A DNA stretch of 64,000 bases, taken from assembly GCA_028407765.1 (NCBI GenBank), contig JAOOJU010000001.1, forward strand, positions 14,838 through 78,837. The letters are read 5' to 3'. The notes below the pieces were generated by a model, which did no database searches, was not told where the DNA came from, and saw only the letters and a list, made by a program, of their open reading frames with translations. The stretch's first letter is position 1. Every line of letters begins with the position of its first letter. This stretch comes from Rickettsiales bacterium. GTDB lineage: Bacteria > Pseudomonadota > Alphaproteobacteria > Methylaequorales > Methylaequoraceae. Of the stretch, positions 38,866-53,234 are shown in pieces. A program made the translations under genes and the position numbers.

Positions 38866-38952
38866 GCCCCTATGGCGGAATTGGTAGACGCGACGGATTC
38901 AAAATCCGTTGAACTTCGGTTCATGTCCGTTCGAGTCGGACTAGGGGTACCA
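38866..38952 (+). tRNA. tRNA-Leu (anticodon CAA), with encoded CCA
   Basis: Cloverleaf readable by eye. Acceptor gccccta/taggggt with G1:U72. D-loop ggaattggtaga. Anticodon stem acgga/tccgt with loop ttCAAaa. Long variable arm gaacttcggttca. T-arm gtccg-ttcgagt-cggac, then CCA. Confidence 0.85.
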
Positions 38953-38967
38953 TAAATTTATGCCTGT

Positions 38968-39954
38968 TTAAATTTTATTTTTACTCTTTCTACTTTCTAG
39001 ATATGAATCATATTCTACTTTAAGTTTCCTGTAAGGAAGAATTATTTTTATATTCTTATCATCCAGAGCATAACTTCGCGCACATTTTACATCTGAATAA
39101 TTCCCTTTTAATAAAGAACCGAGAGTTGGAAAAACTAATTCAATACCTTTGTTTATTATAGAATCATCCAAGCGTAACGTTGTTCTATCAATAATAATAT
39201 TTCCACCAAGTTCAGTGTAACTGTAGTTGTGATTTGGATTTCTACATTCTAGTTTTCCATAATTTGAAAAATGACCGTTATCGCAAGCTAAATAAAGGTC
39301 ACTATCAGAATTTAAAAAAGAAATATTTATTTTTTCAGTACTAATACCATCGTTTATACCAGTAGTTTCATAATAAAAATCTGTTTCGTTCAAAGCTGGA
39401 TCAAATCCATAACTCAACCATCCTTTACTTGCCCAGTCACTTTTTTTTGTTATTACAAACTCAGACATTCGACCTAAATAATCATTTCTAAATTCTAAAT
39501 AAATTTTAACATCAAACTCAAAAGTTGCGTGTCTCTTTCTTCCACTGCAATATAACAATCTTTTTGATAGATCTTTAGAGTCTAGATTCTCATTTATATT
39601 TGTGGGTTTTTCAGTTATTTTTTTTGTAATTTTTTCATTTATTGATCTTTTAATTTCTGGATTTTTTTTATTGTTACTTTTTTTTACTTCATCTTTTTTT
39701 TTCAATTCATTTTCATTTTTAATACTAATTTTAGTGTTTTTTTTCGGTCCAATTTTTTCAAGACAAAGATTACAAACATTTTCCTCGTTCCATTCTCTAA
39801 TTGATGAATAGTTTTCTAAATAGTCAACTCTTTGATCAGTCTTACATGTATAAAACTGAGTTAACAAATCTAATTTTAAATTTTGAGGGTTACAAGAATC
39901 AGCAAAGGATTGAGAAAATATAAAAAAAATAAATACACAAAAAAAAATAAACAT
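38968..39954 (-). CDS. Secreted Cys-containing hypothetical protein with K/N-rich low-complexity linker
   Basis: Signal peptide MFIFFCVFIFFIFSQSFA. No recognisable domain. Confidence 0.4.
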   Translation of the reverse strand: MFIFFCVFIFFIFSQSFADSCNPQNLKLDLLTQFYTCKTDQRVDYLENYSSIREWNEENVCNLCLEKIGPKKNTKISIKNENELKKKDEVKKSNNKKNPEIKRSINEKITKKITEKPTNINENLDSKDLSKRLLYCSGRKRHATFEFDVKIYLEFRNDYLGRMSEFVITKKSDWASKGWLSYGFDPALNETDFYYETTGINDGISTEKINISFLNSDSDLYLACDNGHFSNYGKLECRNPNHNYSYTELGGNIIIDRTTLRLDDSIINKGIELVFPTLGSLLKGNYSDVKCARSYALDDKNIKIILPYRKLKVEYDSYLESRKSKNKI

Positions 39955-40059
39955 TATATTATTTTAGTAAAATTAAGTGAAAAAAAAAACGAAAAAAATA
40001 AAGAAAAAAAAATTTAATTGGTGATTTTTATCTAAATTCTGGAGTTCTAAGAGAAATTT

Positions 40060-42054
40060 ATGAATGACATTAATTCAGTATTACAAAGAGAAAGAAAAAA
40101 ATATAAGATTCGATCTTTTTATTTCGTAGGTTTTGTTGGATGTATTTCAATCTTTATTTATTTTTTTTTACTTCTCTCAAATGGTACGAAAATAATTATT
40201 TTACCTGAAGAGGCAAGTATAAATGCAAAGGTAAAATCTGAGAATTTTTTAGATTTAAGTTTAAACAATTCTATTTATTCATTTTATTCCACACCTCTTT
40301 TTTCCTTATCTTCAAAGGGGTATAAAAAAATCAGCGAAACTATTCCACAAGAAAATAAAGGGAAATTTCATGAGGTTTTAATGACTGAACTTCCAGGCAT
40401 ATTAAATGTCAATATTAAAAAAAAAAATGAAAATACCCAATGGTTTTTAGATCAGAAATTTATCCATGAAGGGGAAAAATTAGAAACAAGCCTACCCGCA
40501 GGACAGTATGATTTAGAAGTTAATAACCCTTTTTTTGAAAAAAAAAATACATATGTCATTATTGAAAAAGGGGAAACTCACAACCTAGATTTAGAACTCA
40601 ATAATATTAACGGTTTTATAAAAATCGATTCAGAGCCAGCTAATGCAAGTGTATTCATTAACAAAAAAAAAATTGGACTCACCCCAATAATTTTTAAAGA
40701 TCAAGGTGGTAAGTACATAATTGAAGTTAAAAAAGAGAATTACAAAAAAATTAATGAAACAATAATTATTACAAATCAGAATAAAGTAAATCAAAGAAAC
40801 TATATCTTGGGGCTAATCGAGGCAAAACTAAAAGTCACTGCAAAACCAAGAGGAGGAAACTTAAATATTAATGGTTTGGTTTATCAAACAGATAAATTTA
40901 TTAATCTTAAATCTAATAAGGAATATGTTGTTTCATATGAAAAACCTGGCTTTAAAAAAAAATCGCTTAATTTAAATTTAAAACCTAATGAAGAAAGAAC
41001 TGAAACTATTAATTTGGAAGAAGAATATGGTATTGTTGAAATTATTTCTCAACCAGAAGCAGAAATTTGGATTAATGGAAAATTATCAGGCCAAACTCCC
41101 AAACTGATCGAGTTAAGAACTATTCAGCAGACTATTGAAGTTAGAAAAAAAAACTTCAGGTCTGTGACTAACAAAATTTTACCGAAAGCAGATAAAAAAA
41201 AAGTTTTAAATATTGATCTTATTGACGAAAAGGTAGCAAAATTGCAAGAGGCAAAATCCTCATACAATAATTCTATTAATATTGAAATGAAATTATTTAA
41301 TCCAAAAGGCGATATATTGCAATTAGGTGCTAAACGTCATGAAAAAGGTCAAAGAGCCAATGAAATTTTGCGAAAAGTTAATCTAACCAAACCTTTTTAT
41401 GTCTCTTTACATGAAGTATCCAACGAAAATTTTACCAATTTTAAAAAAAAGCAATTATCTAGAAATGGAAGTTTTCCTGTAAGCAACATCTCTTGGATCG
41501 AAGCTGCAGCTTTCTGCAATTGGTTAAGTAAAAAAGAAAAACTTGAAGAATTTTATGTCATTAAAGGTGGCAAATTAATTGATTTTAAAGGAAATTCCAA
41601 CGGATATAGATTGCTAACTGAGGCTGAATGGGAGTGGTTATCAAGAAAAGCAAATAAGAAAAAAGCCAGTAAATTTAGTTGGGGTGATAGCTTTATAATT
41701 CCAGACAATTATCTTAATATTGCCGATGAAAGTGCTCAGAGCAATCAAAGGAACTTTGTAAAAGATTATGATGATGGTTATGAAAATCTTGCAGAGATTG
41801 GTAGTTTCAATAGGGAAAGATCTGGGTTATATGATTTATCTGGTAATCTTAGTGAATGGGTTCATGATTATTATACAGTTACTTTCTCCGACAAAATAGA
41901 AAAAGATCCATTAGGTAAAAAAAAGGGATCAAGTCATGTAATCAAAGGTGCAAATTGGAGTTCAGGTACATTAACAAAAATTAGACCTAGTTATAGAGAA
42001 AATGGTATAAAGGGAAATGAAACAACTGGTTTTAGAATAGCAAGATATTTATGA
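40060..42054 (+). CDS. Membrane-anchored protein with three PEGA domains and a C-terminal FGE-sulfatase (SUMF1/formylglycine-generating-enzyme-like) domain
   Basis: N-terminal TM FYFVGFVGCISIFIYFFLLL. PEGA-like units IKIDSEPANASVFINKKKIGLTP, VTAKPRGGNLNINGLVYQ and IISQPEAEIWINGKLSGQTP. FGE-domain motifs NISWIEAAAFCNWLS, GYRLLTEAEWEW, YDLSGNLSEWVHD, VIKGANW and TGFRIARY. Confidence 0.65.
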   Translation: MNDINSVLQRERKKYKIRSFYFVGFVGCISIFIYFFLLLSNGTKIIILPEEASINAKVKSENFLDLSLNNSIYSFYSTPLFSLSSKGYKKISETIPQENKGKFHEVLMTELPGILNVNIKKKNENTQWFLDQKFIHEGEKLETSLPAGQYDLEVNNPFFEKKNTYVIIEKGETHNLDLELNNINGFIKIDSEPANASVFINKKKIGLTPIIFKDQGGKYIIEVKKENYKKINETIIITNQNKVNQRNYILGLIEAKLKVTAKPRGGNLNINGLVYQTDKFINLKSNKEYVVSYEKPGFKKKSLNLNLKPNEERTETINLEEEYGIVEIISQPEAEIWINGKLSGQTPKLIELRTIQQTIEVRKKNFRSVTNKILPKADKKKVLNIDLIDEKVAKLQEAKSSYNNSINIEMKLFNPKGDILQLGAKRHEKGQRANEILRKVNLTKPFYVSLHEVSNENFTNFKKKQLSRNGSFPVSNISWIEAAAFCNWLSKKEKLEEFYVIKGGKLIDFKGNSNGYRLLTEAEWEWLSRKANKKKASKFSWGDSFIIPDNYLNIADESAQSNQRNFVKDYDDGYENLAEIGSFNRERSGLYDLSGNLSEWVHDYYTVTFSDKIEKDPLGKKKGSSHVIKGANWSSGTLTKIRPSYRENGIKGNETTGFRIARYL

Positions 42055-42178
42055 ACTTAAAAAAAAAAAAAAAAATTTTTGTCATATTAATTTTTACATG
42101 TCTTATATGTTATAATATTATTGAGGCTGGTGGCCTGACTATTTCGTTAAATACTCCAATTTCTTTTCCAGTTGATAT

Positions 42179-42937
42179 TTGATGAATAATATACTCAAGA
42201 ACTCTCTATTTTTAATTTTTACAGTCATTATTGTACATTTTATTTTTTCTGGTTTTATAAGACCTGAAGCGAATTTGATAATTGAAACAGCTAAGAACAC
42301 ACAAACATCAGTACCTAGAAATTTCTATATTATTGTAAAAGACCTTGAACAGGAAATTTGTTTCATATTGTTAATTTGGGGAGTTTTTTTAATACTTCAA
42401 AAATGTCTTAAAATTATCAATTCAAACTATCTTTTTAATATTGACCTTATTGAAAGACAAATTGAAACTAAAAAAACGGCAGAAGAAGTTATAAGCAAAT
42501 TAAATAATCAGCTTGATAAAAATCTTCAAGAAACCCCTCTTATCGAATCCATAAATCTTGCATTACTTAGATACTCTCAAACAAAAAATGTTCAAAACGT
42601 GTCAGATTCTATTAAAAGTAGTATTGAAATGCTCTCAACGAAACAAGATAGTGATAACGCAATGATCAGATATTTAATATGGGCTATACCCTCTGTTGGT
42701 TTTATTGGAACTGTTAGAGGCATTGGATTAGCATTATCAAACGCTGATAAGGCAATTGCTGGTAATATTTCATTAATGACTGAAAATTTAGGAATAGCTT
42801 TTAATTCAACTTTTGTTGCATTGATCATTAGTTTAATTTTAATGCTTTTTTTCCATCAACTACAAAAGCTACAAGATGAAAATTTGGTTGATATTCAAGA
42901 ATATTGTGAAAAATATCTTTATTCTAAATTTATATAA
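42179..42937 (+). CDS. MotA/TolQ/ExbB-family proton-channel protein
   Basis: C-terminal consensus MIRYLIWAIPSVGFIGTVRGIGLALSNA and ISLMTENLGIAFNSTFVALIISLILMLFF, plus an N-terminal TM helix. Length is 252 aa. Confidence 0.7.
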   Translation: MMNNILKNSLFLIFTVIIVHFIFSGFIRPEANLIIETAKNTQTSVPRNFYIIVKDLEQEICFILLIWGVFLILQKCLKIINSNYLFNIDLIERQIETKKTAEEVISKLNNQLDKNLQETPLIESINLALLRYSQTKNVQNVSDSIKSSIEMLSTKQDSDNAMIRYLIWAIPSVGFIGTVRGIGLALSNADKAIAGNISLMTENLGIAFNSTFVALIISLILMLFFHQLQKLQDENLVDIQEYCEKYLYSKFI

Positions 42938-42940
42938 ATT

Positions 42941-44011
42941 ATGAAAAAAAAAAAACGTAACAATGATTTTAGCTTATCATTTTTAGACATTATGGCGTGC
43001 GGTTTAGGTGGAGTAATAATAATTTTTTTATTATTAGAAAATAAACCTACTTTCAAAATTAATAAATCCAATACTAATAATGAAATATTAATAGAGCAAA
43101 TTGAAAGCCTTACTAGTTCTAATCAAGAACTAAGTATTGCTAATCAACAATTAGAGTCAGATATAGAAAATGAAAAAAATAAAATATCCGTTATTAATAA
43201 GCAAAATGTAAATTTAGAGAAAACAATTGAAAATGCTAATAAAAACATTCAAGAAGTCAATACAGAAGTCTCTCAACTGAAGGAAAAAATATCAAAAATG
43301 CCGCAGCAAATGATCGAAGATCCTATTTCAAATGATGAATTGTTTGAGGAAAATTATATTGAGGGTCTCACAATAGTAGGGAAAAAAATTTGTATATTAC
43401 TTGATTCTAGTTCATCAATGACCGATGAAAAATTATTAGAAATTATTAAAAGGAAAAATCTATCTAACGAAGAAAAAAAAAAGGGTCCAAAGTGGAAGAG
43501 AAGTTTAGATATTGTAAAGTGGATTTTAGCTAGAGCACCCAAAGACAGTGATATTGCTGTAATACGATTCAATGAAACAGCAAAATATATTGCCAAACAA
43601 TCCTTCCAAACCAAAAATAAGAATGATTTAAAAACAGTTTTTTTAGGTTTAAATAATATAACCCCTGACGGGCCCACAAATTTATTATCTGCTTTAATAC
43701 AAGCGGCAAAATTTAATCCAACCAATATTTATCTAATAACAGATGGATTACCAACTTTTGGTGGAGAAAGATTCAAAAGTTTGAATCCATTTAATAAATG
43801 TGATTCCATTATTGGTTCCTCAAATAAAATATCTGGTGATTGTAGAGTAAAATTATTTAATCAAAGTATAAGATATGTTAGCAATAATGGAGCACAAATA
43901 GATATAATTCTTCTACCCGTTGAGGGTGATCCCCAAGCCTCACCTGAGATGTGGAAATGGGCCTCTGACACAGGTGGTATATTAATCAGCCCAGCGAGAA
44001 GTTGGCCATAA
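42941..44011 (+). CDS. Single-pass membrane protein: TolR/ExbD-like TM helix with Asp, ~100-residue coiled coil, C-terminal vWA (MIDAS) domain
   Basis: N-terminus KKRNNDFSLSFLDIMACGLGGVIIIFLLL. An N/E/K/Q-rich heptad region follows. MIDAS DxSxS is KICILLDSSSSMTDEK, with downstream T and D (ITPDGPTNL..LITDGLP). Its start is 4 nt after the MotA-like stop. Confidence 0.55.
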   Translation: MKKKKRNNDFSLSFLDIMACGLGGVIIIFLLLENKPTFKINKSNTNNEILIEQIESLTSSNQELSIANQQLESDIENEKNKISVINKQNVNLEKTIENANKNIQEVNTEVSQLKEKISKMPQQMIEDPISNDELFEENYIEGLTIVGKKICILLDSSSSMTDEKLLEIIKRKNLSNEEKKKGPKWKRSLDIVKWILARAPKDSDIAVIRFNETAKYIAKQSFQTKNKNDLKTVFLGLNNITPDGPTNLLSALIQAAKFNPTNIYLITDGLPTFGGERFKSLNPFNKCDSIIGSSNKISGDCRVKLFNQSIRYVSNNGAQIDIILLPVEGDPQASPEMWKWASDTGGILISPARSWP

Positions 44012-44946
44012 TGAAGAAAAAAAGGGATTTAGAAAATACACTTTTTTCATTCTTAGATGTAATATCTTGTGGGTTTGGGGCTATTGTGATGTTGGTGTTA
44101 ATTTACAAATTTAATCCCAGTGAAAATATTGAGAATTCTGATGAAGATAATGAGAGTTACATTTTAAAAATTAATGAGTTACAAGAAATTAATGATCAAT
44201 TAAAGAAAACAAAAGAACAATTAAATAATAAGGTTTTAGAAATTAATAAAAAATTTTTAGAAGTTAAAAATTCTATACAAAATAAACAAAATTCACTTAC
44301 ATCAATTGAAGAAAAAAAAAAAAATCTAAAAGATTCAGCTGAAGCATTAAAACTAGTTGAGAATAATCTCAAATCCTTTTCACTGAAAAAGAAAAAGGAA
44401 ATTGTAAGGGATATTGAAGTTGGTGGAATTCCTGTCGATAGCGACTATGTCATTTTTATAGTTGATACATCTGGAAGTATGTTGACTATCTGGGATAAAG
44501 TTTCTAGCAAAATTGAAAATATTTTAAAGATTCATCCAAATGTCAAGGGTTTTCAAATATTGAATGATATGGGAGTTCCGCTCATTTCTGGTTATAAAAA
44601 TAAATGGATACCAGATACACCAACTTGGCGTAAAAATTCATTAAAATTGTTCAAAATGTGGGTTATTGCCTCAAACAGTAGTCCTCTAGAAGGTATTGAA
44701 TGGGCACTTATAAAATATTCAGATCCTAAAAAGTCTGTGGCAATTTATGTCATGGGGGACGATTATACAGGCGGAGATTATGACATAGCAATTAATAAAA
44801 TAACAAATTTAAATAAAAAAAAAAAATTCAAAACAAGGATTCATGCCATTGGTTTTCTTGCTCAAGATACAACAGATAGATTTTCAATTATTATGCGTGA
44901 GATAACGAAACAAAACAACGGAACCTTTATCGCTTTACCCAGATAA
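44002..44946 (+). CDS. Paralog of the preceding gene: TolR/ExbD-like TM with Asp, coiled coil, vWA (MIDAS) domain
   Basis: N-terminus KKKRDLENTLFSFLDVISCGFGAIVMLVLIY. A coiled coil follows. MIDAS is YVIFIVDTSGSM. It overlaps the previous gene by 10 nt. Confidence 0.55.
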   Translation: MAIMKKKRDLENTLFSFLDVISCGFGAIVMLVLIYKFNPSENIENSDEDNESYILKINELQEINDQLKKTKEQLNNKVLEINKKFLEVKNSIQNKQNSLTSIEEKKKNLKDSAEALKLVENNLKSFSLKKKKEIVRDIEVGGIPVDSDYVIFIVDTSGSMLTIWDKVSSKIENILKIHPNVKGFQILNDMGVPLISGYKNKWIPDTPTWRKNSLKLFKMWVIASNSSPLEGIEWALIKYSDPKKSVAIYVMGDDYTGGDYDIAINKITNLNKKKKFKTRIHAIGFLAQDTTDRFSIIMREITKQNNGTFIALPR

Positions 44947-44950
44947 TTTT

Positions 44951-46576
44951 TTATATCTTTTCTAAGCAAATAACCTTCAATTGAACAGGCTCATTTTCTG
45001 TCAAATTGACATCTAAAAAAATATCTCTGAAACCTTTTTTTTTTCCTATAAAATAGTATTTTCCTGGAGGAAGCTGAATAATTTTTTCTTCAACTTTCCC
45101 AACTTTACCAATACCTCTGATTTCTATTAGAGTTTCGTTGTCCGAAAAAATTTTTACATTAATTTTTGTTTCAGATTTTTTAATAACATCAGAGACCTCA
45201 AGATAATTTTTAAAAAGTGATGGACTAATATCCAAGTATTTTTTTGATCTTTTAAGATCACTAAGAACCTTGTTCTTAAATTTTTGATTAGTTAATCTGT
45301 GCAAGTTTTTGGAATAACTTCTTAAACTTTTTTTTAAAGATAAAATTTCTTCTGTCATTTCAATTTTTTCTCTAATAAAAGCGTCATTACTTTCTATAGT
45401 TTCAATTTTCTTGAGATTGAGTAATGAAGTTTCCCAATCATCATTACTGGAAGCAATATTAAAATTAGAAAGTAAATCTTTTTTTATTTTTTCTTCTTTA
45501 AGTTTATCTAATTTGTCTTCAAATAAATTTATCTCAGGTCTATTTGGCAAAATTATCTTTGCTTTTATTAAGAAGTTTTCTGCATCTTTAATATTTCCAT
45601 CTTTAAAAAACTTTTCTGCTTTATTAATTTTCTTTGCAAATTCTGTTTCAGCTATTGTGAGACTCAAATTTTTTATTTCATCATCTAATTTAGGGTTCTT
45701 TTCTATTTGACTGAGCTTTTGCATTAAAAGTAATTCTTTTTTTTTATTATTCTCGTTTCGGGCAGTTTCTAAATTTTCAAGGATTTGAATTTTTTCTGGA
45801 AGCACTTTTATCTTGGTTCTTAACTTTTTTGCTTCTGGGGCATTAGGTTTTAATTTGAGAGCATTTTTGATGTTTTCATATGCTTTTAAATATGATAAAT
45901 CACTGTAGAATGATTTTGCATTTGAAAAAAAATTATTAAAATCCTCTTCAAGTTTCTTGTTAGTTTTTTTAATTTCAATTTCAGTGTTATCAATTTTTTT
46001 TATAGCATCAATAAAGTTTCCTTTATTTTTGATTACAATAATCTCTTTTCTCATGTTCTCAATCTTTTCAATATTTTGTTGAAAATAATTAAAATTCCAA
46101 ATAAATAATGAATCATAAAAAAATTTTTCAAGTTCAATTTTCTTGTTTAGAAAAACTTCTTTTGCATTTTTTAAATTAATATTCTCAGTTTTATTAGAAA
46201 AACTTTCCAAGTTATCTTTAATTGTATTTCTTTTATTTGTGATAATATTACTCTCAAAATTTTGACAATTAAATTCTGTAAAATCGTTGTTGATTGTTGA
46301 TGTTATTTTCTTATTTTTAAAATCAATAAATTCAATTTTATTATTATCCTCAGTTACATAAGTAAGATTTAAATCGTCAGAAGAAGTGAATTGCTGGCAC
46401 TTTTCTTGGTTGGAAGAATTTATCATACAAATATTATTTTTGGTTTTTGTATATTTGGTTAGTTTATTCGCTCCATCTATACATTCCATTGTTAGCTCAT
46501 AATTATTTGCTTTAGAAAAAATTTTATTACTAATTAAAGAAATAAGTATAAAAAAGATTATTTTGTGGAATTTCAT
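44951..46576 (-). CDS. Secreted coiled-coil/TPR-like repeat protein with C-terminal PEGA-like beta domain
   Basis: Signal peptide MKFHKIIFFILISLISNKIFSKA and a long K/E/N-rich helical region with TPR-like units (AYENIKNALKLKPNAPEAKKL; FFKDGNIKDAENFLIKAKIILPNRPE). The C-terminus is ...IQLPPGKYYFIGKKKGFRDIFLDV. It is convergent, 4 nt from the vWA gene stop. Confidence 0.4.
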   Translation of the reverse strand: MKFHKIIFFILISLISNKIFSKANNYELTMECIDGANKLTKYTKTKNNICMINSSNQEKCQQFTSSDDLNLTYVTEDNNKIEFIDFKNKKITSTINNDFTEFNCQNFESNIITNKRNTIKDNLESFSNKTENINLKNAKEVFLNKKIELEKFFYDSLFIWNFNYFQQNIEKIENMRKEIIVIKNKGNFIDAIKKIDNTEIEIKKTNKKLEEDFNNFFSNAKSFYSDLSYLKAYENIKNALKLKPNAPEAKKLRTKIKVLPEKIQILENLETARNENNKKKELLLMQKLSQIEKNPKLDDEIKNLSLTIAETEFAKKINKAEKFFKDGNIKDAENFLIKAKIILPNRPEINLFEDKLDKLKEEKIKKDLLSNFNIASSNDDWETSLLNLKKIETIESNDAFIREKIEMTEEILSLKKSLRSYSKNLHRLTNQKFKNKVLSDLKRSKKYLDISPSLFKNYLEVSDVIKKSETKINVKIFSDNETLIEIRGIGKVGKVEEKIIQLPPGKYYFIGKKKGFRDIFLDVNLTENEPVQLKVICLEKI

Positions 46577-46606
46577 CTATTAGCGACAAAAAAATTGAAT
46601 TATCAA

Positions 46607-47830
46607 TTAGATAGTGGCTGGAATTTCGACCTCAGGAGTTTTTTCTTTTTCATATATTTTTTTTAAAAACACTCTCCATTGAGAAAATTGTTCTTTAGCT
46701 GTCCCTGTCAATTCTACAGTATCATTATTTAATTCTATTACTTTAGATGTCATTTCAACTTCTATAGATTGACCAAGTTCATTAATTGCGTCTCTATGAA
46801 CTTTAGCTTCTTCACTCTTCTTAAAACTATCTTGTAAAAGTGATGCCCCAGCCATTCCTCCACTAACAGCGCCCAATGTACCTAAAGCTTGGCTACCAGC
46901 ATCACCAGAATTTGCACCAGCTACAGCAGCAAGTACTGCTGCACCAAGCAATAAAATTCCACCAATTGCTTTACCTACTGCTTCACCCTTGGCTTTACTT
47001 TCGGCTTGTTTTTCCTGAAATGACTGTTGCTGCCATGTTAAATAACTTGTATCGATATTTTCGTCAAAATTCATATAAAAAACTTGTAATTCGTCAATAA
47101 ATAATTGATCTCGAACTCTTAAATTTGATAATCTAAGATATTTTGGATCAGAACTATCAAGCTTTGCTTTAATTATATATTTTCCATCTTCATTTTTATC
47201 AATATTTTCTGAAAAAGATTCTTCAGAGAGATTCATACCGAATCTTAAATCACTGATGTATTTTAAATCATCAAGGTTATTGGTAGAAACAAATTGAAGC
47301 TTTTCTTCGATTTTTTTCGCGATTTTCTGAAAAACTGGGTCATAAGAATCTTGGTTATATCCTCCTTTAGTGTAGAAATCTTCTGGCACTTGGTGTTCAA
47401 AATCGTCATTAATCCATAAGTTACCAGAGATGTCTGCCACTTTAATGTCTAATTCAACTTCTTCACTGTTTGATTCCATAATTTTTCCTGAGATATATAA
47501 ATCACTTGTTGCGTTCAGGTCAGGAACAACTCTGACAGCCCCAAATTTGTCTAACTTTTCAATATATAGTTTAAGTTTATATGCGAATCTAATTGATTCA
47601 GCTTTTCTTAATTCTGTCCAAACATCTTCGTTGTTGGATTTAGGAATATTTGGATCAAATACAGCTATTGCAACATCTAGTCTTGGTCTGGAATCATCAG
47701 CAAAATCTTGAACTTTTTCTTCCTCAAGAATTTGATTTGAAGTTTTTGGACCAAAGTCCATTAACGACTGTGTAGTTTTACAACTAGAAATAAAAAAAAC
47801 TATTAATATAACTAATGAAGTAAGTCTCAT
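46607..47830 (-). CDS. Lipoprotein with C-terminal glycine-zipper membrane segment
   Basis: Lipobox LVILIVFFISSC, an acidic central domain and a Gly-zipper AIGGILLLGAAVLAAVAGANSGDAGSQALGTLGAVSGGMAGASLL. Confidence 0.4.
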   Translation of the reverse strand: MRLTSLVILIVFFISSCKTTQSLMDFGPKTSNQILEEEKVQDFADDSRPRLDVAIAVFDPNIPKSNNEDVWTELRKAESIRFAYKLKLYIEKLDKFGAVRVVPDLNATSDLYISGKIMESNSEEVELDIKVADISGNLWINDDFEHQVPEDFYTKGGYNQDSYDPVFQKIAKKIEEKLQFVSTNNLDDLKYISDLRFGMNLSEESFSENIDKNEDGKYIIKAKLDSSDPKYLRLSNLRVRDQLFIDELQVFYMNFDENIDTSYLTWQQQSFQEKQAESKAKGEAVGKAIGGILLLGAAVLAAVAGANSGDAGSQALGTLGAVSGGMAGASLLQDSFKKSEEAKVHRDAINELGQSIEVEMTSKVIELNNDTVELTGTAKEQFSQWRVFLKKIYEKEKTPEVEIPATI

Positions 47831-47874
47831 AATTAAAATTTCCAGATAGATTAGATCATAAATTTAATAAAAAC

Positions 47875-48420
47875 TCAATCTTCAAGCGGTAAATTTTTAT
47901 ATTTTCTATACTCATTCCAAATCTTTTTTTGCTTTTCGGGGTCACTTTCTTTAAGTGCAGCATTCTTTATTTGTTGAGCTAAAACATCATCATTGTCATC
48001 AAAAGGAATATCTTCAGGAATTTTTCCATTTGACCCTGAATTATTTTTATTAATAGAACCTGCGAGTTCATTTTCAGTGTTTTGATTTTGTTCATTGTAT
48101 GACTCAGTTGATTCTTGATCTGCGCTAAGTTTATTGCCTCTTAATTCTTGGGATCTATCCGATGCATTTTCTATACTATCGTCAACATTATTTTGCCTTG
48201 CTGATGTTTTTGCTTTTATACACTCTTCAAATCTATCCAAGGACTCGAGTAAAGCGTCATCCATCGCCTGAATCTGCTCTCTGTCTGTTAAATATTCATT
48301 TTCTTTATAGTTTACATCAAAATTATCGCACTCATCATTAAATGTTTCAGAGTAAGAAGCTTTTCCCATGACAAAAATAACAATAAGAAGTAGATGACTT
48401 AAAAAAAATTTGTACAACAT
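47875..48420 (-). CDS. Secreted acidic hypothetical protein
   Basis: Signal peptide and a D/E/N/Q-rich body. Confidence 0.3.
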   Translation of the reverse strand: MLYKFFLSHLLLIVIFVMGKASYSETFNDECDNFDVNYKENEYLTDREQIQAMDDALLESLDRFEECIKAKTSARQNNVDDSIENASDRSQELRGNKLSADQESTESYNEQNQNTENELAGSINKNNSGSNGKIPEDIPFDDNDDVLAQQIKNAALKESDPEKQKKIWNEYRKYKNLPLED

Positions 48421-48705
48421 AAATTAAACTTTTTTTCAAATTATTTTGGAGCTAACCCCATTTAATTTTAATCTTTAATTGTCAGTTGGAAAAGAAAAAT
48501 TTTTATCTCTTATTATCGATAGGAGGATGATGTGTAATCCGCATTCAGGATAATTATCTATTAAACCTCTCCTGTTATCTAAGATTAATTTTTTTTACTT
48601 TATTTTTTAAAGGTATTAAATTTACTGAAAAATATTATTAAATGGTTAAAAAAGTGTGATGGTAAAATTTATCTTTTTTTAAATCAATGACTTATACAAC
48701 AACAC

Positions 48706-48766
48706 AACTGATTCAAAATCCGTTGAACTTCGGTTCACGTCCGTTCGAGTCGGACTAGGGGTACCA
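48706..48766 (+). repeat. Direct repeat: partial copy (anticodon stem to CCA) of the tRNA-Leu(CAA) 3' portion, 2-3 mismatches
   Basis: actgattcaaaatccgttgaacttcggttcaCgtccgttcgagtcggactaggggtacca compared with the tRNA at 38893-38952. Confidence 0.8.
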
Positions 48767-49188
48767 TTTAAGAAAAATATTTAAATATAAATTTCAAAAT
48801 TCTATTTTGTTTTAATAATTCATGTCCGAAAAAACTTTCAATAATCCTTTGAATCAAGATGAAAAAAATATGATGAAAGATCTTTCAGCATAAAACAATA
48901 TCTTTTACATTTTAATCCAACTAATGCACCTTTTTTCCCGCTATATTTTAATTTGTCAGTAAATTCATACGCTACACTTATAGATCCACCATGATTAAAA
49001 TCTTTTTCAACAATATTAGTATTATTTGGAGCTGAGTATTGATATTTGCCTACTTGGTATTCAGCCTGAGAAAATAGCTGTCCCAAAATTAGACTATATC
49101 GTAGACCAAAGAAGTGATGATATTGAAAAGTTGGGTTTCATTTTTATTTCGTACCAAGAGTGATAATTTTATTACCTCATGTTTGATA

Positions 49189-50538
49189 TTAGTTCAAAAG
49201 TATTGTTTTTAAATATTCACCAACAATTTTATTACCTGTAAAACTTAGGTGACCGCCAGTATCTCCACCTCGAAAAGCAAATAATTTTTTTAAATCTTTA
49301 TTTTCCTTAAAGATTTCTCCTAGATCATAATATTTTATTTGTTGGCTTGTAATAATTTTTCTTACTTTTAAATCATTTTTAGAAATTGTTTTGATGTCTT
49401 TTTCATGTGGTAAATTAATGAAAATCAGTTCAGCATTAATTCTATCTGAAAATCTTTTTGCTTTTGAAATAATTTGTTCGAATCTTCCAAAATCAATTTC
49501 ATCAGATTCCTTAGATTTGTTAAATCTTAGGTTTACTTTGTTTCTTATACTCTTTAAGAATAGTCTATCCTTTGAGAAAAAAATTTCATTTATTGATCTC
49601 AATTTTTTTTCAGTATCTGGTTTCTTAAGTAACTTATTAAAATAAAAATCACTTAATAAAGACTCAATCTCTTTTTTTTTTTGAAATAGATTTTGTGAAT
49701 AATCATCAAGCAAATAATTATCAAATTTTTTTATCTTTTTGTAATAGTTTATTCCATCACTAAGATCATTACCTCCATAATGAACCCAAATAATTTTTTT
49801 TGGTTTTATTTCAGCAGCGTATTCTTTAATAATACCAAGATTTATAATTGGTCCATTTCCTGAAATTCCTAAATTTAATGCATTAACACCGACTTTTCTG
49901 AAAATATTTATAAAATGATTATTATTTGGAAGACAGCAACCTTCAGTAAAAGAGTCACCTACAAACAAATACTCAATTTTTTCATCCCAATATTCATCTA
50001 AGTTATTAAATCCATGCCTATCAGTTAAAAATTTGTGATGTTTACCGTATTCATTCTTACTTACAATTACTGTGTTTGGAGAATATGCCAGGGGAGTTAA
50101 ACCTATGTTTTCTTTAAAAACTCTAAAAGCAGGATGAGCCTTTCCATCACTTTGATTTATATCTTCTGCTACTTGTCTTTTTGTTCTAACATCATAATCA
50201 TAATCGAATGCTAACGAGTTTGCGAAAATAGCATATCTTTTATATGTGGCATAGTACTCAAATATTAAAATTGGAAAAGTAAAAGATCCAATTAATATCA
50301 AAGTATATGACGAACTGAATATTTTTTTTTTTTGATTCCAAATTAATAAAATACTCACAAAAAGTGTAATAGATAATATTATTAAAAGTTGGAATATATA
50401 GTTTTCTGCAAAATTTTCTTTATTTAAAAAATTAAAATTTAAACCTAAAATTCTATAACACAAAAAAAATGAAAGTATTAGCAAGGAAAATATTATAAGT
50501 CTAATTAATACTCTTGATAGTTTCTCAATTAAACTCAT
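49189..50538 (-). CDS. Polytopic membrane protein with C-terminal SGNH/GDSL-type hydrolase-like domain (polysaccharide O-acyl modification candidate)
   Basis: Four N-terminal TM helices. The GDS(x)nG block is YLFVGDSFTEGCC. Later motifs are GISGNGP and WVHYGGNDL (GxND). Confidence 0.45.
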   Translation of the reverse strand: MSLIEKLSRVLIRLIIFSLLILSFFLCYRILGLNFNFLNKENFAENYIFQLLIILSITLFVSILLIWNQKKKIFSSSYTLILIGSFTFPILIFEYYATYKRYAIFANSLAFDYDYDVRTKRQVAEDINQSDGKAHPAFRVFKENIGLTPLAYSPNTVIVSKNEYGKHHKFLTDRHGFNNLDEYWDEKIEYLFVGDSFTEGCCLPNNNHFINIFRKVGVNALNLGISGNGPIINLGIIKEYAAEIKPKKIIWVHYGGNDLSDGINYYKKIKKFDNYLLDDYSQNLFQKKKEIESLLSDFYFNKLLKKPDTEKKLRSINEIFFSKDRLFLKSIRNKVNLRFNKSKESDEIDFGRFEQIISKAKRFSDRINAELIFINLPHEKDIKTISKNDLKVRKIITSQQIKYYDLGEIFKENKDLKKLFAFRGGDTGGHLSFTGNKIVGEYLKTILLN

Positions 50539-50760
50539 GGGTAATGTATATTCATAAAATTAAGTAAAGTCTACTAATTCTAATTTTCTTCAAAAAATTA
50601 TACACTTGGGTAAGAAAAATCTAATAAAAAAAGTTAAAAAAGTTTTTCGAGATTTAACATTCATAGGGATATTTTTAGAGATTTTGAAAAAAAACATTGA
50701 TACAAGACATTGAAATAAGCAATGAAAGTCAATGTAATAAAGGGTTTTAGACCCAAAGCA

Positions 50761-50819
50761 ACTGATTCAAAATCTGTTAAACTTCGGTTCATGTCCGTTC
50801 GAGTCGGGCTAGGGGTACT
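50761..50819 (+). repeat. Direct repeat: second partial copy of the tRNA-Leu 3' portion (~5 mismatches)
   Basis: actgattcaaaatctgttaaacttcggttcatgtccgttcgagtcgggctaggggtact. Confidence 0.75.
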
Positions 50820-50988
50820 AATTAATGAAAAGTTAGATTGATTGTGATTTAATCTAAATCACTAATAAAGGTAAGGTTGAGGAGAAAAGTAATTATAATT
50901 AACTTTTAAAGACTAATATTTATCCAAAAAATATTGTTCTTGCGAACTAAAAGAATTAATCTAAAACTATATTTAGAGAAGTATTCTT

Positions 50989-52872
50989 ATGTGTGGGATA
51001 GCAGGAATTTACAGTTTAAAGGGTAAACCAATTTTAAATATTGAAGATAGAATATTTAAAATGAACGAGTCCTTAAAACACAGAGGACCTGACCAAAACG
51101 GGTTATTTATTTCTGAAGACAAGACATGTGCAATTGGTAATACTAGGTTATCAATAGTTGATGTTAAATCAAAGCTAAGACAACCTCTTAAATCAAAAAA
51201 TGGAGAGTTTATTCTAAGTTTTAATGGTGAAATATATAATTATAAGGAACTAAAGAAAGATATTTTTAACAAGAATTTTCAATTTCGATCAGATCTTGAT
51301 ACAGAAGTGCTTCTAGAAGGTTTCTTGAAATATGGTAAGAAATTTTTAGATGAAATAGACGGTGTTTATAGTTTTGTGATATATAACAAATCCGATAAGA
51401 GTATTGAGTTATTTAGAGATTTAATGGGTGAAAGACATCTTTTCTATAGAATTTATAAAGATGAACTTATATTTTCATCAGAAATAGAACCCATAATTAG
51501 AGACAACAAACCAGGGCTTACGTTTTGTTTTAATTCAATTGCTTCTGCAATTAGGTTTGGTGCATGCGGTATGGATAATACTCTTTTCAAAGAAATTAAA
51601 ACACTCAAACCTGGGTTTAGTATCTCTGCAAAAAATAATGGAGAACTAAAAATAAAAAATGTTAAAAAATTATGTCCTAAAAAGTGGTTAAATTTCTTTA
51701 AAAAAGACCCCAATTATGACGAAGTTATTGATATTTACCAAAAGCTTTTATTTAAATCATGTAAATTGAGAGTGCCAAGAGAAGTAGATTTCTTTTCAAC
51801 ATTAAGTGGAGGTTTAGATAGTTCATTAATCAATATATTATTATCGGATAATGGTAAGAAAAAAATTGATACGATTTTCGGCTTTAGTAATAATATTGAA
51901 GAGAGAGAGAATGCGATCTATGTTTCAAAAAAATTAAATACTAATCATACCATAATTGATTTTTTTGATTCAGATTTTTACGAATTAATTAAGAATAATG
52001 CCAAAGGATGTTTTGATGGTTCACTTTCCCAGCACGCCCCATTTGAATGTATAGCAAATGCCACTAGAAAGAAAGGTAAAAAAGTTGTAATAATGTCAGA
52101 CTCTCCTGACGAATTAATGGGTGGTTATGCTGCAGACTTCTCCAACTTTAAAATAAGAAGTTTTTTAGGAAAAAATAAATTACTCAGAAATTTTATGTTT
52201 CGATTAGCTAAAAATAGGGTAGGTAGAAAATTACTTAGTAAACTTATTTTTGATAGTCGAGAAATTAATTGCCTTTTAAAAATGGGAAGAAATGATTTTT
52301 TTACTTTTGTACCTACTCATGATAGCCATGACATAAAAGATATTTTTCCTGATAGTATCGTAGAACAATCAGAAAAAAGCTTCGGATGTATCCCAAAATG
52401 CTATGATGATCTAAAGGAAAGATTATCGATAGGCGGGAATATGGCGCTAGCTTATGCTACTGGAACAATACCAAATATGAGTAATTTAAGAGTTGATAAA
52501 TCTTTTTTCAGACAATCTATCGAACCCAGGTTACCATTTCTAAGCATTGATTTAGTAGAATTCATGGTTGCAATGCCTGATAAATATCGTTTTAACAAAG
52601 AAGGATTAGGTAAAAAATTATTACGAGATATAATAAAAAAATCTTTAGGAAAAAAAATTGCAAACAGGTCTAAATTTGGCTTAGCAAACAGCTACACTTC
52701 TGAAATTAAGATTTACAATAAATTAAAAATTAGAGATGTTATCGCTGGAAGTAATATTTTTGATGTTTTTCCATTTAAAAAAGGCTCAAAAGATTTTGTG
52801 TTAAATAATAAAAAAATACATTGGAGCTTTTATAGTTTTATCAAGACATTTGAAAATTTTAAAAATTTATAA
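50989..52872 (+). CDS. asnB: Asparagine synthetase (glutamine-hydrolysing) family amidotransferase
   Basis: N-terminal MCGIAGIY (Cys2 nucleophile) and PP-loop SGGLDSS. Length is 627 aa. Confidence 0.75.
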   Translation: MCGIAGIYSLKGKPILNIEDRIFKMNESLKHRGPDQNGLFISEDKTCAIGNTRLSIVDVKSKLRQPLKSKNGEFILSFNGEIYNYKELKKDIFNKNFQFRSDLDTEVLLEGFLKYGKKFLDEIDGVYSFVIYNKSDKSIELFRDLMGERHLFYRIYKDELIFSSEIEPIIRDNKPGLTFCFNSIASAIRFGACGMDNTLFKEIKTLKPGFSISAKNNGELKIKNVKKLCPKKWLNFFKKDPNYDEVIDIYQKLLFKSCKLRVPREVDFFSTLSGGLDSSLINILLSDNGKKKIDTIFGFSNNIEERENAIYVSKKLNTNHTIIDFFDSDFYELIKNNAKGCFDGSLSQHAPFECIANATRKKGKKVVIMSDSPDELMGGYAADFSNFKIRSFLGKNKLLRNFMFRLAKNRVGRKLLSKLIFDSREINCLLKMGRNDFFTFVPTHDSHDIKDIFPDSIVEQSEKSFGCIPKCYDDLKERLSIGGNMALAYATGTIPNMSNLRVDKSFFRQSIEPRLPFLSIDLVEFMVAMPDKYRFNKEGLGKKLLRDIIKKSLGKKIANRSKFGLANSYTSEIKIYNKLKIRDVIAGSNIFDVFPFKKGSKDFVLNNKKIHWSFYSFIKTFENFKNL

Positions 52873-52926
52873 TTTTCTATTATTTTTAAATATGAAAAAT
52901 ACTTATGGTTTAAATATTTATTTTAA

Positions 52927-53012
52927 GCCCTAATAACTGAATTGGAGTACACGACGGATTCAAAATCCGTTAAACTTCGGTTCATGTCCGCTCGTGTTGG
53001 ATTAGGAGTACA
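52927..53012 (+). pseudogene. Degenerate near-full-length tRNA-Leu-like copy (pseudo-tRNA); T-stem and acceptor pairing disrupted
   Basis: gccctaataactgaattggagtacacgacggattcaaaatccgttaaacttcggttcatgtccgctcgtgttggattaggagtaca aligns along the whole tRNA-Leu. However gtccg/tggat cannot form a T-stem. Confidence 0.65.
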
Positions 53013-53234
53013 ATCTAAATACTAAAAAATTTCTATAATTTCAGTAAATTGAACTTTATAAAATTAGATAATTTTGCTTAAATTTAAATATAACAAAAAT
53101 ATTATTATGATTGAGATTGATGTATCTTATAGTTGTGTGATAATTCAAATGTTTTTATTGAAAAACTATAATTCTATCGATTGTTCTTAATTTTAATAAT
53201 TATAGTTTTTAACTTTTCTTAAAAAGGATACAAT

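Follow-up and report, generated by a model that had tools for sequence, protein, structure and literature searches.

The tRNA-Leu(CAA) Gene and Its Copies

The window, a 64 kb stretch of DNA analysed as a whole, contains a single tRNA gene as judged by ARAGORN, a tRNA-Leu(CAA) with an Rfam tRNA match (38873-38931) inside it. In 30 related tiles the gene has exactly the same 87 nt. When the 87-nt gene was used as a BLASTN query against the window, three further copies were detected, all on the same strand as the gene (Table 1). Copy 1 matches over 57 nt with one mismatch (E 8e-26; four mismatches if extended to 48702), copy 2 over 55 nt with three (E 8e-20; five if extended to 50758), and copy 3 over 60 nt with six (52952-53011; E 1e-15). 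With lenient scoring, copy 3 extends to 52927-53011, or tRNA positions 1-85, with 15 mismatches in 85. Chance is ruled out for the three copies, as the next-best hits in the window all have E > 1. When 49 related copies were combined into an arm-plus-core nhmmer profile, a search of the window returned these four sites and none besides. Successive copies are spaced by 9,749, 1,991 and 2,106 nt.

An earlier note, made from the letters of this DNA, had described these copies; its coordinates and mismatch counts are right to within a few bases, the similarity to the tRNA that it reported is significant for all three, and its insertions of roughly 9.8, 2.0 and 2.2 kb agree with the spacing given above. 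It had also read the copies as increasingly decayed. Part of that gradient is not decay: in copies 1 and 2 the differences at the 5' edge (tRNA positions 23-30) mostly reflect the boundary with an arm and not mutation. In arrays from related genomes, divergence rises only weakly with distance from the tRNA (Spearman 0.37; monotonic in 8 of 13 arrays).

Table 1. Features of the tRNA-Leu(CAA) locus, in window coordinates.
Feature	Position	Strand	Description	Basis
Intact tRNA-Leu(CAA)	38866..38952	+	Proposed chromosomal attachment site, today in attL position	ARAGORN, Rfam
Islet 1	38953..48644		Eight cargo genes	Pfam, PHROGs, PADLOC, translations
P arm, class A, degenerate	48645..48709	+	Putative arm of copy 1	nhmmer 48645-48772, E 2e-40; alignment of 83 copies plus flanks
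Copy 1	48710..48766	+	tRNA positions 31-87; putative attR core of the element delivering islet 1	BLASTN
Islet 2	48767..50648		449-aa GDSL/SGNH-like protein (-)	Pfam
P arm, class B	50649..50763	+	Putative arm of copy 2	nhmmer 50649-50825, E 1e-40
Copy 2	50764..50818	+	tRNA positions 31-85; putative attR core of a class B element	BLASTN
Islet 3	50819..52926		Sole gene: 627-aa AsnB-type glutamine amidotransferase / asparagine synthase family (+)	Pfam
Copy 3	52927..53011	+	Near full-length pseudo-tRNA-Leu	BLASTN; nhmmer profile matches core alone
Flexible DNA past copy 3	53012..57043		GC 21-27%; without detectable att site	Composition, Pfam

Genes Carried Between the Copies

Islet 1 encodes a 328-aa secreted protein (-), a 664-aa PEGA/FGE-sulfatase protein, a 252-aa MotA/ExbB protein, two vWA-type proteins (356 and 314 aa), and three more whose N-termini are of signal-peptide or lipoprotein-like type (541, 407 and 181 aa (-)). 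The Pfam matches are MotA_ExbB (E 1.8e-12), VWA_2 (E 4.4e-06), and FGE-sulfatase together with PEGA. A defence system was considered for this islet and rejected; the PADLOC matches are weak (E 1e-04 to 1e-02) and were attributed to low-complexity or coiled-coil-like regions. The Pfam match of the islet 2 protein to GDSL-type hydrolases is also weak (E 5.5e-06, under the curated cut-off). The left end of this islet holds a truncated gene start (48826-48895), and 48767-48886 is common to DNA lying directly 3' of the tRNA in one related genome, L017 (92% identity over 180 nt). The islet 3 protein matches GATase_6, GATase_7 and Asn_synthase. Pfam thus bears out the cargo named previously (MotA/vWA proteins, an SGNH hydrolase, an AsnB-type amidotransferase), the hydrolase with a weak match.

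Past copy 3 the DNA encodes a 279-aa methyltransferase, a 399-aa CxxCxxCC protein (-) and a 333-aa Hydrolase_4 protein. Relatives of the CxxCxxCC gene, at 68-71% nucleotide identity, occur inside cassettes of three other genomes (L016, L035, L008). The conserved flank begins at a DoxX gene (57044), where DoxX/Abhydrolase_1 synteny is found with L001 and L003. An exact-match search for the GSDH protein encoded upstream of the tRNA had no hit. Its closest homologues are in these same two, where the surroundings are rearranged and lack the tRNA, so that they say little about the locus.

Absence of a Recombinase from the Window

The earlier note found no recombinase in the islets, and the same can be said of the whole window. 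Pfam detects no recombinase among all sizeable window ORFs, PHROGs no integrase among the islet ORFs, and tblastn with the cognate integrase described below finds nothing in the 64 kb. Leftover ORFs in 38953-57000 are all shorter than 130 aa. A screen of 315 ORFs for the HxLRH motif of tyrosine recombinases was negative, but it is a crude one. The result rests on PHROGs, a library that does detect the cognate integrase (phrog_1 'integrase', 2e-23), and on tblastn; Pfam PF00589 misses even the true cognate integrase, for which Pfam reports a SAM_5 N-terminal domain alone.

The window also contains neither a P' arm nor a backbone remnant. Because all three components are missing, attribution of the islets to elements is drawn from the right junctions alone. 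The islets are therefore remnants and not complete elements, since the integrase is found only in related DNA. Neither the window nor the relatives have a recombinase next to the tRNA; in the relatives the upstream genes are MCM, Abhydrolase_2, HNH, COQ7, DsbB and VTT/DedA-like.

Junction Arms

Copies 1 and 2 are each preceded by a conserved arm of 60-110 nt with short direct repeats. Conserved arms with tandem 9-10 nt repeats likewise lie upstream of the partial copies in related genomes. Three motifs separate the arms into class A, class B and a pooled class C/D (motif counts 22, 9 and 10). Across the window the motifs occur about three to four times per strand, yet often two lie within 110 nt of a copy.

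The window carries one arm of each of the first two classes. The class A arm comprises an A-run, a single GTGTGATGG arm-type site at 48654-48662 and then TAAATCAATGACTTA; 48651-48771 is 84.6% identical to the arm plus core of a related element, L046. That the copy 1 arm has just one arm-type site, and a degenerate one, counts against its attribution to an element. The class B arm comprises GATTTTGAA and an A-run, arm-type sites CATTGATAC (50695-50703) and CATTGAAAT (50708-50716), and AAGGGTTTTAGACCC. Its identity is 78% to the L046 arm plus core (50651-50818), 80.5% to the class B P arm of a second element, L053 (50682-50763), and 85-88% to the class B arms of four host genomes (L017, L014, L038, L043).

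Because these arms match the P arm of attP on integrase-bearing elements, the repeats at copies 1 and 2 are interpreted as integration junctions. Their reading as attR-type junctions, in which a conserved arm is followed by the tRNA from anticodon stem to CCA, is largely supported by such comparisons, and the two copies appear to derive from distinct element classes, copy 1 from class A and copy 2 from class B.

Cognate Elements, attP Sites and Integrases

A class A attP is found on an element of about 8.2 kb (L046/L047/L048) that is circular or concatemeric. The ends of L046 overlap by 322 nt at 99.4% identity, and it is therefore taken as a circle of about 8.2 kb; L047 consists of at least three tandem 8.2-kb units. 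Class A elements have one attP, in which TGTTTGATAC-type repeats, two in P and two in P' about 200 nt apart, surround a tRNA-like core, and the integrase gene comes after. The class B attP, on L053, has CATTGACAC twice per side. Arm-type repeats on both sides of a target-homologous core are thus present in L046 and L053, and the window keeps P arms only.

Elements of both classes encode a 393-aa tyrosine integrase. For class A the ORF is intact in short-read contigs (L048, L049); fragments obtained in a protein search with the N-terminus were considered as pseudogenes and are instead explained by long-read frameshift errors. The L053 integrase is 90% identical to that of class A, with the differences clustered in the first 60-90 residues, as would be expected of an N-terminal domain that reads the arm repeats. 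Integrase relatives are numerous in metagenomes (501 at E <= 1e-10), many on contigs of 8-10.6 kb. L046 codes for both tyrosine and serine recombinase types. The element backbone includes an RFC/AAA-like ATPase, a small serine recombinase and small acidic ORFs. Of replication-type genes, only an AAA / DNA_pol3_delta2-like ATPase is recognised; L050 has a ParB-like protein. Neither a terminase nor a packaging gene was detected on the elements, and the IMG/VR viral contigs yielded no relatives when searched with the integrase protein, with two patterns from tRNA fragments or with one from the P' arm.

Integrase genes are also associated with the tRNA in host DNA. In five cases (L015, L011, L029, L040, L004) the tRNA or one of its copies is followed immediately on the 3' side by an integrase stub with a P' arm, and the int gene starts about 100 nt past the att core, reading into the element, in L015, L011 and L053. 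The integrated integrases in host contigs are stubs or are cut off by the end of the contig (L011, L051), and no complete, uninterrupted element between tRNA and attR was found in the fetched host contigs.

A more distant integrase (48% identity) is encoded by L050, whose attP holds the 5' half of the tRNA (positions 1-40). A corresponding 5'-half relic occurs upstream of the tRNA in one host genome, L024. The only segment common to both attP types is the anticodon stem-loop, from which we infer a crossover region at tRNA positions 28-44.

Variability Among Related Genomes

The comparison set consisted of 42 tiles of 8 kb from 30 related marine alphaproteobacterial genomes (AT-rich, about 28% GC). 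The search pattern demanded a host-type variable arm, and the sample is biased by that pattern and by the 8-kb tiles. In at least 23 of the 30 genomes at least one partial copy follows the identical tRNA on the same strand, with a maximum of five within 6 kb (L022). Two other genomes have islet 1, set in another array context: 40805-48768 matches L032 at 97.6% identity, and 39754-48583 matches L031 plus L007 at 90-93%. Islets 2 and 3 have no match among the 42 tiles. Because islet presence varies across these tiles, the islet DNA is accessory, as the earlier note proposed; among the relatives the block does not behave as conserved core. Between genomes whose core DNA upstream either aligns at 68-89% identity or cannot be aligned, inter-copy segments are 93-99% identical along their full length. 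The 37 att-bounded segments have a median length of 1,285 nt, and 26 of them contain just one ORF.

The Third Copy

Copy 3 is of a different kind. The three repeats had been treated as like duplicates left by insertion, which holds for copies 1 and 2 as junctions; copy 3 is armless (the nhmmer arm plus core profile matches the core only) and nearly full-length. It is not called as a tRNA by ARAGORN or Rfam. Divergence is about 36% in the 5' 25 nt and about 10% in the 3' 60 nt, and the damage is mostly at conserved T-loop positions and in the 5' third of the gene. The T-stem, previously described as broken, still pairs through G-U pairs when the sequence is read. Apparent compensatory changes in the acceptor stem vanish on re-alignment with a 1-nt deletion; the G-U pairs left after it are C-to-T transitions, expected in an AT-rich genome, and so are not evidence of selection. 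Another idea, that the DNA upstream of copy 3 preserves the native tRNA flank in its ancestral state, was dropped: aligned locally with 30 upstream flanks from other genomes, it reached no significant score (z <= 3.1).

Copy 3 is a decayed full-length tRNA copy, and full-length decayed copies are likewise present in L005 and L039. Most simply, it would be an old right junction, from an element with a weak full-length tRNA look-alike in its attP; failing that, a redundant duplicated tRNA. Today it is a pseudogene.

Origin of the Locus

The repeats and their arms, the attP sites and integrases elsewhere, the lack of a recombinase in the window and the variability among relatives are direct observations. 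They are probably best explained if the locus is an additive genomic island at tRNA-Leu(CAA), built by the lambda-type tyrosine integrases of small integrative elements. Each element, of about 8-10 kb and carrying an integrase of this family, would have an attP made up of a P arm with two arm-type direct repeats, a core copying the tRNA from anticodon stem-loop to CCA, and a P' arm with two further repeats, followed by the inward-facing int gene. Recombination in the anticodon loop region would restore a working tRNA at the left junction and leave the P arm plus the 3' part of the tRNA at the right one. A later element entering at the restored tRNA would displace earlier material away from it. 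Copy 1 would then be a class A right junction and copy 2 a class B right junction, both elements having lost integrase, P' arm and backbone and left cargo and right junctions behind. We infer the order of events and the manner of loss; the latter could have been deletion, or exit of the element via an inner att copy, leaving cargo acquired elsewhere. Integration and excision are both proposed from comparison of sequences. The serial site-specific insertion suggested before, with the integrase since gone, is on the whole supported, as the arms match attP sites and integrases found elsewhere.

Homologous recombination at conserved att or arm sequences could shift segments without any integrase. 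In its full form this explanation is possible but not favoured: a few old integrations would have occurred, and the main role of the tRNA fragments and arms today would be that of portable homology (about 60-200 nt) for RecA-type exchange, duplication and deletion after DNA uptake, with present turnover integrase-free. The identical or nearly identical att cores, the 80-96% conservation of arms between genomes and the lack of a recombinase in the window fit it, and segment borders at repeats are equally expected. It is also in keeping with the reported scarcity of mobile elements: streamlined marine bacteria have been described as without canonical mobile elements, and only one integrase was found in the SAR11 islands studied (PMC11796062). 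However, intact integrases with perfectly matching attP are abundant in metagenomes (the 501 relatives above), and integrase stubs adjoin the tRNA. The arm-type repeats and integrase N-termini co-vary between class A and class B, which argues for ongoing selection on site recognition.

A little less likely again is capture in trans, similar to that of integrons, in which integrase-less cassettes (a gene plus att) are cut out as small circles, which the integrase of a co-resident 8-10 kb element or phage then inserts at the tRNA. The predominance of short single-ORF segments would suit such a process, as would the occurrence of identical segments at differing ranks across genomes with borders exactly on att cores. 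No integrase was found in the segments (tblastn, all segments; Pfam, 18 distinct single-ORF cassette proteins only), and five segments keep arm-type sites at both ends. Against it, arm-type motifs occur at the left end of 5 of 37 segments versus the right end of 25, so that most excised circles would be without P' sites, which lambda-type integrases normally require for integration. Gene orientation is mixed, no free cassette circles were seen, and the integrase stubs demonstrate that deletion in full elements produced at least some of the segments. An origin of all copies as tandem duplications or pseudogenes of a tRNA family, with no link to mobile elements, is very unlikely; the near full-length, armless copy 3 and the decayed full-length copies in L005 and L039 would agree with it, but copies 1 and 2 begin at the anticodon stem behind element-type arms matching attP, a homology that refutes it for these two, and the inter-copy segments are mutually unrelated.

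Comparison with Known Systems

The additive island at tRNA-Leu(CAA) has the general form of a tRNA-targeting integrative element, bounded on one side by an intact tRNA gene and on the other by a direct repeat of that gene's 3' part. The integrase expected within such an element is absent from the window and present in related DNA (as stubs, and intact in L048 and L053).

The same island model has been proposed for the tycheposons of Prochlorococcus (Hackl et al., bioRxiv 10.1101/2020.12.28.424599; later Cell). As far as described in the portion of that preprint consulted, they target island tRNA genes (seven tRNAs in Prochlorococcus), have an inward-facing tyrosine recombinase at one end, and are displaced inward by newer elements, with fragmented integrases and extra partial tRNAs scattered in the islands; related elements are reported in Alpha-, Gamma- and Deltaproteobacteria. 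Insertion at a tRNA, an inward-facing int at one end, additive stacking, integrase fragments and partial tRNAs are all shared with the present locus. In contrast, the present elements target tRNA-Leu(CAA) in an AT-rich marine alphaproteobacterium, no primase, helicase or polymerase module was recognised in their backbone, and, compared with that description, the arrays consist mostly of single-gene segments, each keeping a P arm. The likeness is one of architecture, the integrase being known here by its phrog_1 and SAM_5 matches. VEIMEs (Eppley et al. 2022, PMC9618062) resemble the elements in being small, in forming tandem concatemers in long reads and in having no capsid genes. Here the resemblance comes from contigs alone (L047 concatemeric, L046 circular, both recombinase types in L046; samples ERZ28548058 and ERZ28548059), and unlike VEIMEs, the elements have no IMG/VR relative and no terminase or packaging gene found. 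By analogy, the locus may be considered comparable to additive islands of tycheposon or VEIME shape.

In the sections consulted of two further reports, tRNA 3' end repeats (the last 20 nt) mark inserted gene cassettes in fGI-2 at tRNA-Lys of 'Ca. Methylopumilus' (PMC10872708), and four SAR11 islands contain partial tRNA repeats (PMC11796062). A fixed locus, strain-variable genes, direct repeats of the tRNA 3' end and few or no mobile-element genes are common to these islands and the one described here. The repeat here differs from that of fGI-2 in spanning about 57 nt (anticodon stem-loop to CCA) plus an arm of 60-110 nt, and candidate cognate integrases with attP were found, whereas those sections name no recombinase. 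Class 1-type and chromosomal integrons also have mostly single-gene units, a recurring recombination site and addition beside a fixed primary site. The defining integron set (IntI with attI, and attC-bounded cassettes) is not found here: the array has no IntI-type integrase next to it, a tRNA fragment plus arm recurs in place of a folded attC, gene orientation is mixed, and most units are without a complete site of their own.

Significance

Streamlined ocean bacteria have large flexible gene pools and few recognisable mobile elements, and how their islands are filled is debated. Since its logic is known from Prochlorococcus tycheposons and additive islands, the locus introduces no new principle. 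A tentative and rather unlikely extension is that it acts as an integron-like gene-capture platform without a resident integrase, served by 8-10 kb satellite- or plasmid-like carriers. If true, mostly single-gene segments would be picked up, carried and dropped via alternative att copies, pairs of arm class and matching integrase N-terminal domain would define compatibility groups, and sister elements that use the 5' half of the tRNA would form a further island on the opposite flank of the gene. What the locus does offer is a defined target, namely the tRNA-Leu(CAA) anticodon stem-loop, together with two or more specificity classes of arm and integrase and segments common to diverged genomes. 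It ties integrase-less chromosomal scars to specific candidate integrases and attP sites on small seawater elements, and the question of what moves the cassettes becomes testable in this lineage.

Copies of tRNA-Leu(CAA) in the window

The window (GC ~28%) contains a single tRNA gene by ARAGORN, tRNA-Leu(CAA), and downstream of it three same-strand repeats of the 3' part of that gene (copies 1-3; see the table). An earlier note had described this arrangement of a gene followed by three further copies, and it is borne out by ARAGORN, by BLASTN self-comparison, where all further matches of the 87-nt query in the window had E > 1, and by a profile of 49 related copies with their upstream arms, which found the same four sites and no others. 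The copies behind tRNA-Leu are probably integration scars. In the proposed mechanism, tyrosine-integrase elements would insert at the tRNA and leave the P arm, one flank of the attP core, and the tRNA 3' part at the right junction. The view of these copies as serial-insertion scars lacking an integrase is supported, with refinement needed in the arm classes, the arm boundary and the interpretation of copy 3.

Features of the window, with positions on the forward strand
Feature	Position	Strand	Description
Intact tRNA-Leu(CAA)	38866-38952	+	ARAGORN; Rfam agrees
Copy 1	48710-48766	+	tRNA positions 31-87, 1 mismatch, E 8e-26 (BLASTN, 87-nt gene against window)
Copy 2	50764-50818	+	tRNA positions 31-85, 3 mismatches, E 8e-20 (BLASTN)
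Copy 3	52927-53011	+	tRNA positions 1-85, 15 mismatches; 3' 60 nt, 6 mismatches, E 1e-15
Islet 1 (tRNA to copy 1)			9,749 nt; 328-aa protein (signal-peptide-like N-terminus), PEGA/FGE-sulfatase, MotA/ExbB, two vWA-type proteins, three proteins of no assigned family whose N-termini resemble signal peptides or those of lipoproteins
Islet 2 (copy 1 to copy 2)			1,991 nt; GDSL/SGNH-like protein
Islet 3 (copy 2 to copy 3)			2,106 nt; AsnB-type amidotransferase
Islet 1 block shared with relatives	39754-48768		
Short ORF at left end of islet 2	48826-48895		MSEKTFNNPLNQDEKNMMKDLSA, then stop
CxxCxxCC protein	54306-55505	-	399 aa, N-terminal CxxCxxCC, weak Pfam PF03692 match
Block between VTT/DedA-like gene and tRNA	16761-38865		22 kb
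Cytochrome c and PQQ-dependent sugar dehydrogenase (GSDH)	36895-38587		directly 5' of tRNA; 38% GC vs 28% for the genome
Right conserved flank	from ~57044		
HNH/MCM block; DoxX, Abhydrolase_1, SDR, Ppx block	11025-16760, 57044-63978		DoxX-Ppx block inverted relative to more distant contigs L001 and L003

The islets were said to lack a recombinase, and this holds across the whole window. Pfam identified none among all sizeable ORFs, PHROGs found no integrase among the islet ORFs (the same library detects the cognate integrase described below at 2e-23), and tblastn with that integrase as query gave no match in the window. None of the leftover ORFs in 38953-57000 reaches 130 aa, and most lie over real genes of the opposite strand. 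The cargo does differ from islet to islet, as the earlier note had it, with MotA/vWA genes in the first, an SGNH-like gene in the second and an AsnB-type gene in the third. The islet 1 block is kept as a unit in AG-349-G10 (L032 1-7976, 97.6%) and in MED715 (L031 3717-8000 and L007 1-4596, 90-93%). It is probably one functional envelope-associated system; no PADLOC defence model matched it.

Arms and cognate elements

Alignment of all copies with their flanks shows a conserved arm of 60-110 nt in front of the partial copies. It is made up of an A-run, usually two tandem 9-10 nt direct repeats, and a conserved spacer leading into the tRNA anticodon stem. The arms can be sorted by repeat type: class A has GTKTGATA-type repeats, class B CATTGAYA, and classes C and D GTGTGAGA. 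Such motifs occur just 3-4 times per strand in the full window, yet there are often two within 110 nt of a copy. In the window, the arm of copy 1 belongs to class A and is degenerate, and that of copy 2 belongs to class B. These two copies mismatch the tRNA at positions 23-30 in ways common to all copies of the respective class, and the mismatches mark the arm boundary rather than decay. The motif GATTTTGAA followed by an A-run lies just upstream of the arm-type repeats in many P arms (window 50680-50688; L046, an integrase-bearing contig, 5945-5953). Read in reverse complement it gives the anticodon-loop core TTCAAAATC, and in the window the complementarity reaches 16 nt at 88% (50673-50688 vs 50766-50781). 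The motif may serve as an additional core-type site, or may have arisen by chance, the DNA being AT-rich.

Candidate cognate integrases were found in related DNA. In the host-genome tiles L015 and L011 the N-terminal part of a tyrosine integrase is encoded just 3' of the tRNA. The ends of L046, a long-read contig of 8.5 kb, overlap by 322 nt at 99.4% identity, which implies a circle of ~8.2 kb; the 27-kb contig L047 consists of three or more tandem units. In the short-read contigs L048 and L049 the integrase is an intact 393-aa ORF. The class A element has a single attP with TGTTTGATAC-type repeats, two in the P arm and two in the P' arm (the other flank), ~200 nt apart. Its core corresponds to tRNA positions ~28-87 and is followed by an inward-facing int gene; the other genes encode an AAA/RFC-like ATPase, a small serine recombinase, a lipoprotein and small acidic ORFs. 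The class A P arm is 84-96% identical to array arms, and the P' arm matches DNA 3' of the tRNA in five host tiles (L004, L029, L015, L011, L014). In the window, the copy 1 arm region (48651-48771) shares 84.6% identity with L046, and the copy 2 arm (50682-50763) shares 80.5% with L053, a contig with a class B attP carrying CATTGACAC twice per side.

The L053 integrase and the class A enzyme are 90% identical (L053 633-1814 vs L048 185-1363), and most differences fall within the first 60-90 residues: 13, 22 and 24 of 30 residues are identical in the first three windows of 30, and at least 28 in later ones. The arm-type repeats of the two classes are wholly different. This N-terminal clustering is the pattern expected if the N-terminal domain reads the arm repeats, and the class A/B pair would then be a natural specificity swap in the predicted arm-binding domain. 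This is a large integrase family: a search gave 501 relatives at E <= 1e-10, and many of these are on contigs 8-10.6 kb long.

Copy 3 and the proposed site of crossover

Copy 3 is of another kind. It spans the whole tRNA, ~36% diverged in its 5' third and ~10% in its 3' part; neither ARAGORN nor Rfam calls it, the profile of 49 related copies with arms found no arm, and its upstream flank has no significant similarity to native tRNA flanks. With divergence so uneven along the tRNA, the copy may be the right junction formed by an element with a weak, full-length look-alike of the tRNA in its attP. Extended tRNA homology does exist, in host tile L037 (positions 12-87) and in the integrase-bearing contig L050.

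L050 encodes a 48% identical relative of the cognate integrase, and its attP (4487-4700) joins class C GTGTGAGAG-type repeats to the 5' half of tRNA-Leu(CAA), positions 1-40. The 3'-type and 5'-type attP sites share only the anticodon stem-loop, which suggests that strands are exchanged within or near the anticodon loop, reportedly a known sublocation for tRNA-targeting integrases. The predicted crossover is the 7-nt loop TTCAAAA. The 5'-half relic expected of such elements, 41 nt long, is present in host tile L024 (2647-2687), 2.4 kb upstream of the intact tRNA. Together with the L050 attP it suggests that sister elements insert on the other side of this tRNA. A copy in a related MAG (L019 7598-7676) is identical to the tRNA at positions 1-79 and then diverges, and so lacks the acceptor stem's 3' strand; it may be a junction from an element crossing over in the T-loop or acceptor region.

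Arrays in related genomes

A scan of one genome per bacterial species with a 34-nt repeat motif yielded 42 tiles; they come from 30 genomes of marine Alphaproteobacteria, either single-cell or metagenome-assembled. All full-length tRNA copies in these tiles are identical to the window gene (87/87), and same-strand partial copies are found, one or more each, in at least 23 of the 30 genomes, with up to five within 6 kb in L022. The earlier note had divergence rising along the array. The rise with distance from the tRNA is only weak (Spearman 0.37, p = 0.026).

Segments with a copy at both ends (n=37) have a median length of 1,285 nt, and 26 hold a single ORF (>=100 aa, either strand). Single-gene cargo includes FkbM-type and other methyltransferases, 2OG-Fe(II) oxygenase, GIY-YIG, HNH, T5orf172, Sel1 repeats and histidine phosphatase. 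CxxCxxCC proteins resembling the 399-aa ORF of the window also recur as cargo, an assignment made by nucleotide similarity and reading of the sequences, Pfam having called none among single-gene cargo. Relatives of the 399-aa gene are the single gene of cassettes in L016, L035, L008 and L029 (68-71% nucleotide identity).

Between genomes, whole segments can be 93-99% identical from first to last base despite upstream core DNA that is 68-89% identical or unalignable, and near-identical segments occupy different array ranks in different genomes. Segments therefore travel as whole units with att cores at their ends. Arm-type motifs lie at the right end of 25 of the 37 segments and at the left end of five, so most are not complete mini-elements. 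This favours a full element that carries and drops segments via alternative att copies, or homologous recombination, over autonomous cassette circles.

Integrase stubs with a P' arm are preserved in L015 (176 aa), L029 (28 aa), L040 and L004, and L040 also keeps fragments of other backbone genes, so integrated elements do erode by deletion. A Sel1-repeat gene of 595 aa sits in full after the tRNA in L017; the short ORF at the left end of islet 2 is its truncated start, a further deletion scar.

Genomic surroundings

In relatives the tRNA comes immediately after a conserved block (methylmalonyl-CoA mutase, Abhydrolase_2, HNH, COQ7, DsbB, VTT/DedA-like); for example, the VTT gene is 79 nt from the tRNA in L017. 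In the window the two are separated by 22 kb containing a sugar-modification cluster, an ABC exporter and the cytochrome c/PQQ-dehydrogenase pair, so that the tRNA has a second flexible island on its 5' side; no tRNA relic is detectable in this block. With the right conserved flank, this places the tRNA inside a flexible region of ~40 kb. Genes of the 22-kb block include epimerases/dehydratases, DegT aminotransferase, FkbM methyltransferases, PhyH-type dioxygenases, E1-type TPP enzymes, GHMP kinase, the ABC exporter and a MORN-repeat protein. The cytochrome c/GSDH pair has ~80% nucleotide identity to L001 and L003, in which its neighbourhood is different, with an SDR gene on one side and a DCC1-like gene on the other; it looks like a transferred two-gene module. 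The DoxX-Ppx block is parted from the HNH/MCM block by the entire flexible region; with its inversion, one inversion endpoint seems to coincide with the island.

Relation to known systems

No earlier description was found of candidate cognate integrases and attP classes for integrase-less scars, of integrase N-termini that co-vary with the arm repeats, or of paired targeting of the 3' half and the 5' half of a single tRNA. For Prochlorococcus tycheposons an accretion model has been described, in which new elements push older ones inward and islands contain partial tRNAs and fragments of integrases; related elements are reported in Alphaproteobacteria (bioRxiv 10.1101/2020.12.28.424599). VEIMEs are concatemeric small elements of Pelagibacter/Alphaproteobacteria hosts, with tyrosine and serine recombinases and without capsid genes (PMC9618062). 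In 'Ca. Methylopumilus', additive islands with recurring repeats of a tRNA 3' end as markers have been described (PMC10872708), and four SAR11 islands are reported to contain partial tRNA repeats (PMC11796062). Because accretion, concatemeric elements and tRNA 3'-repeat islands have already been described, the window feature belongs to an already known kind and resembles tycheposon/VEIME-type additive islands.
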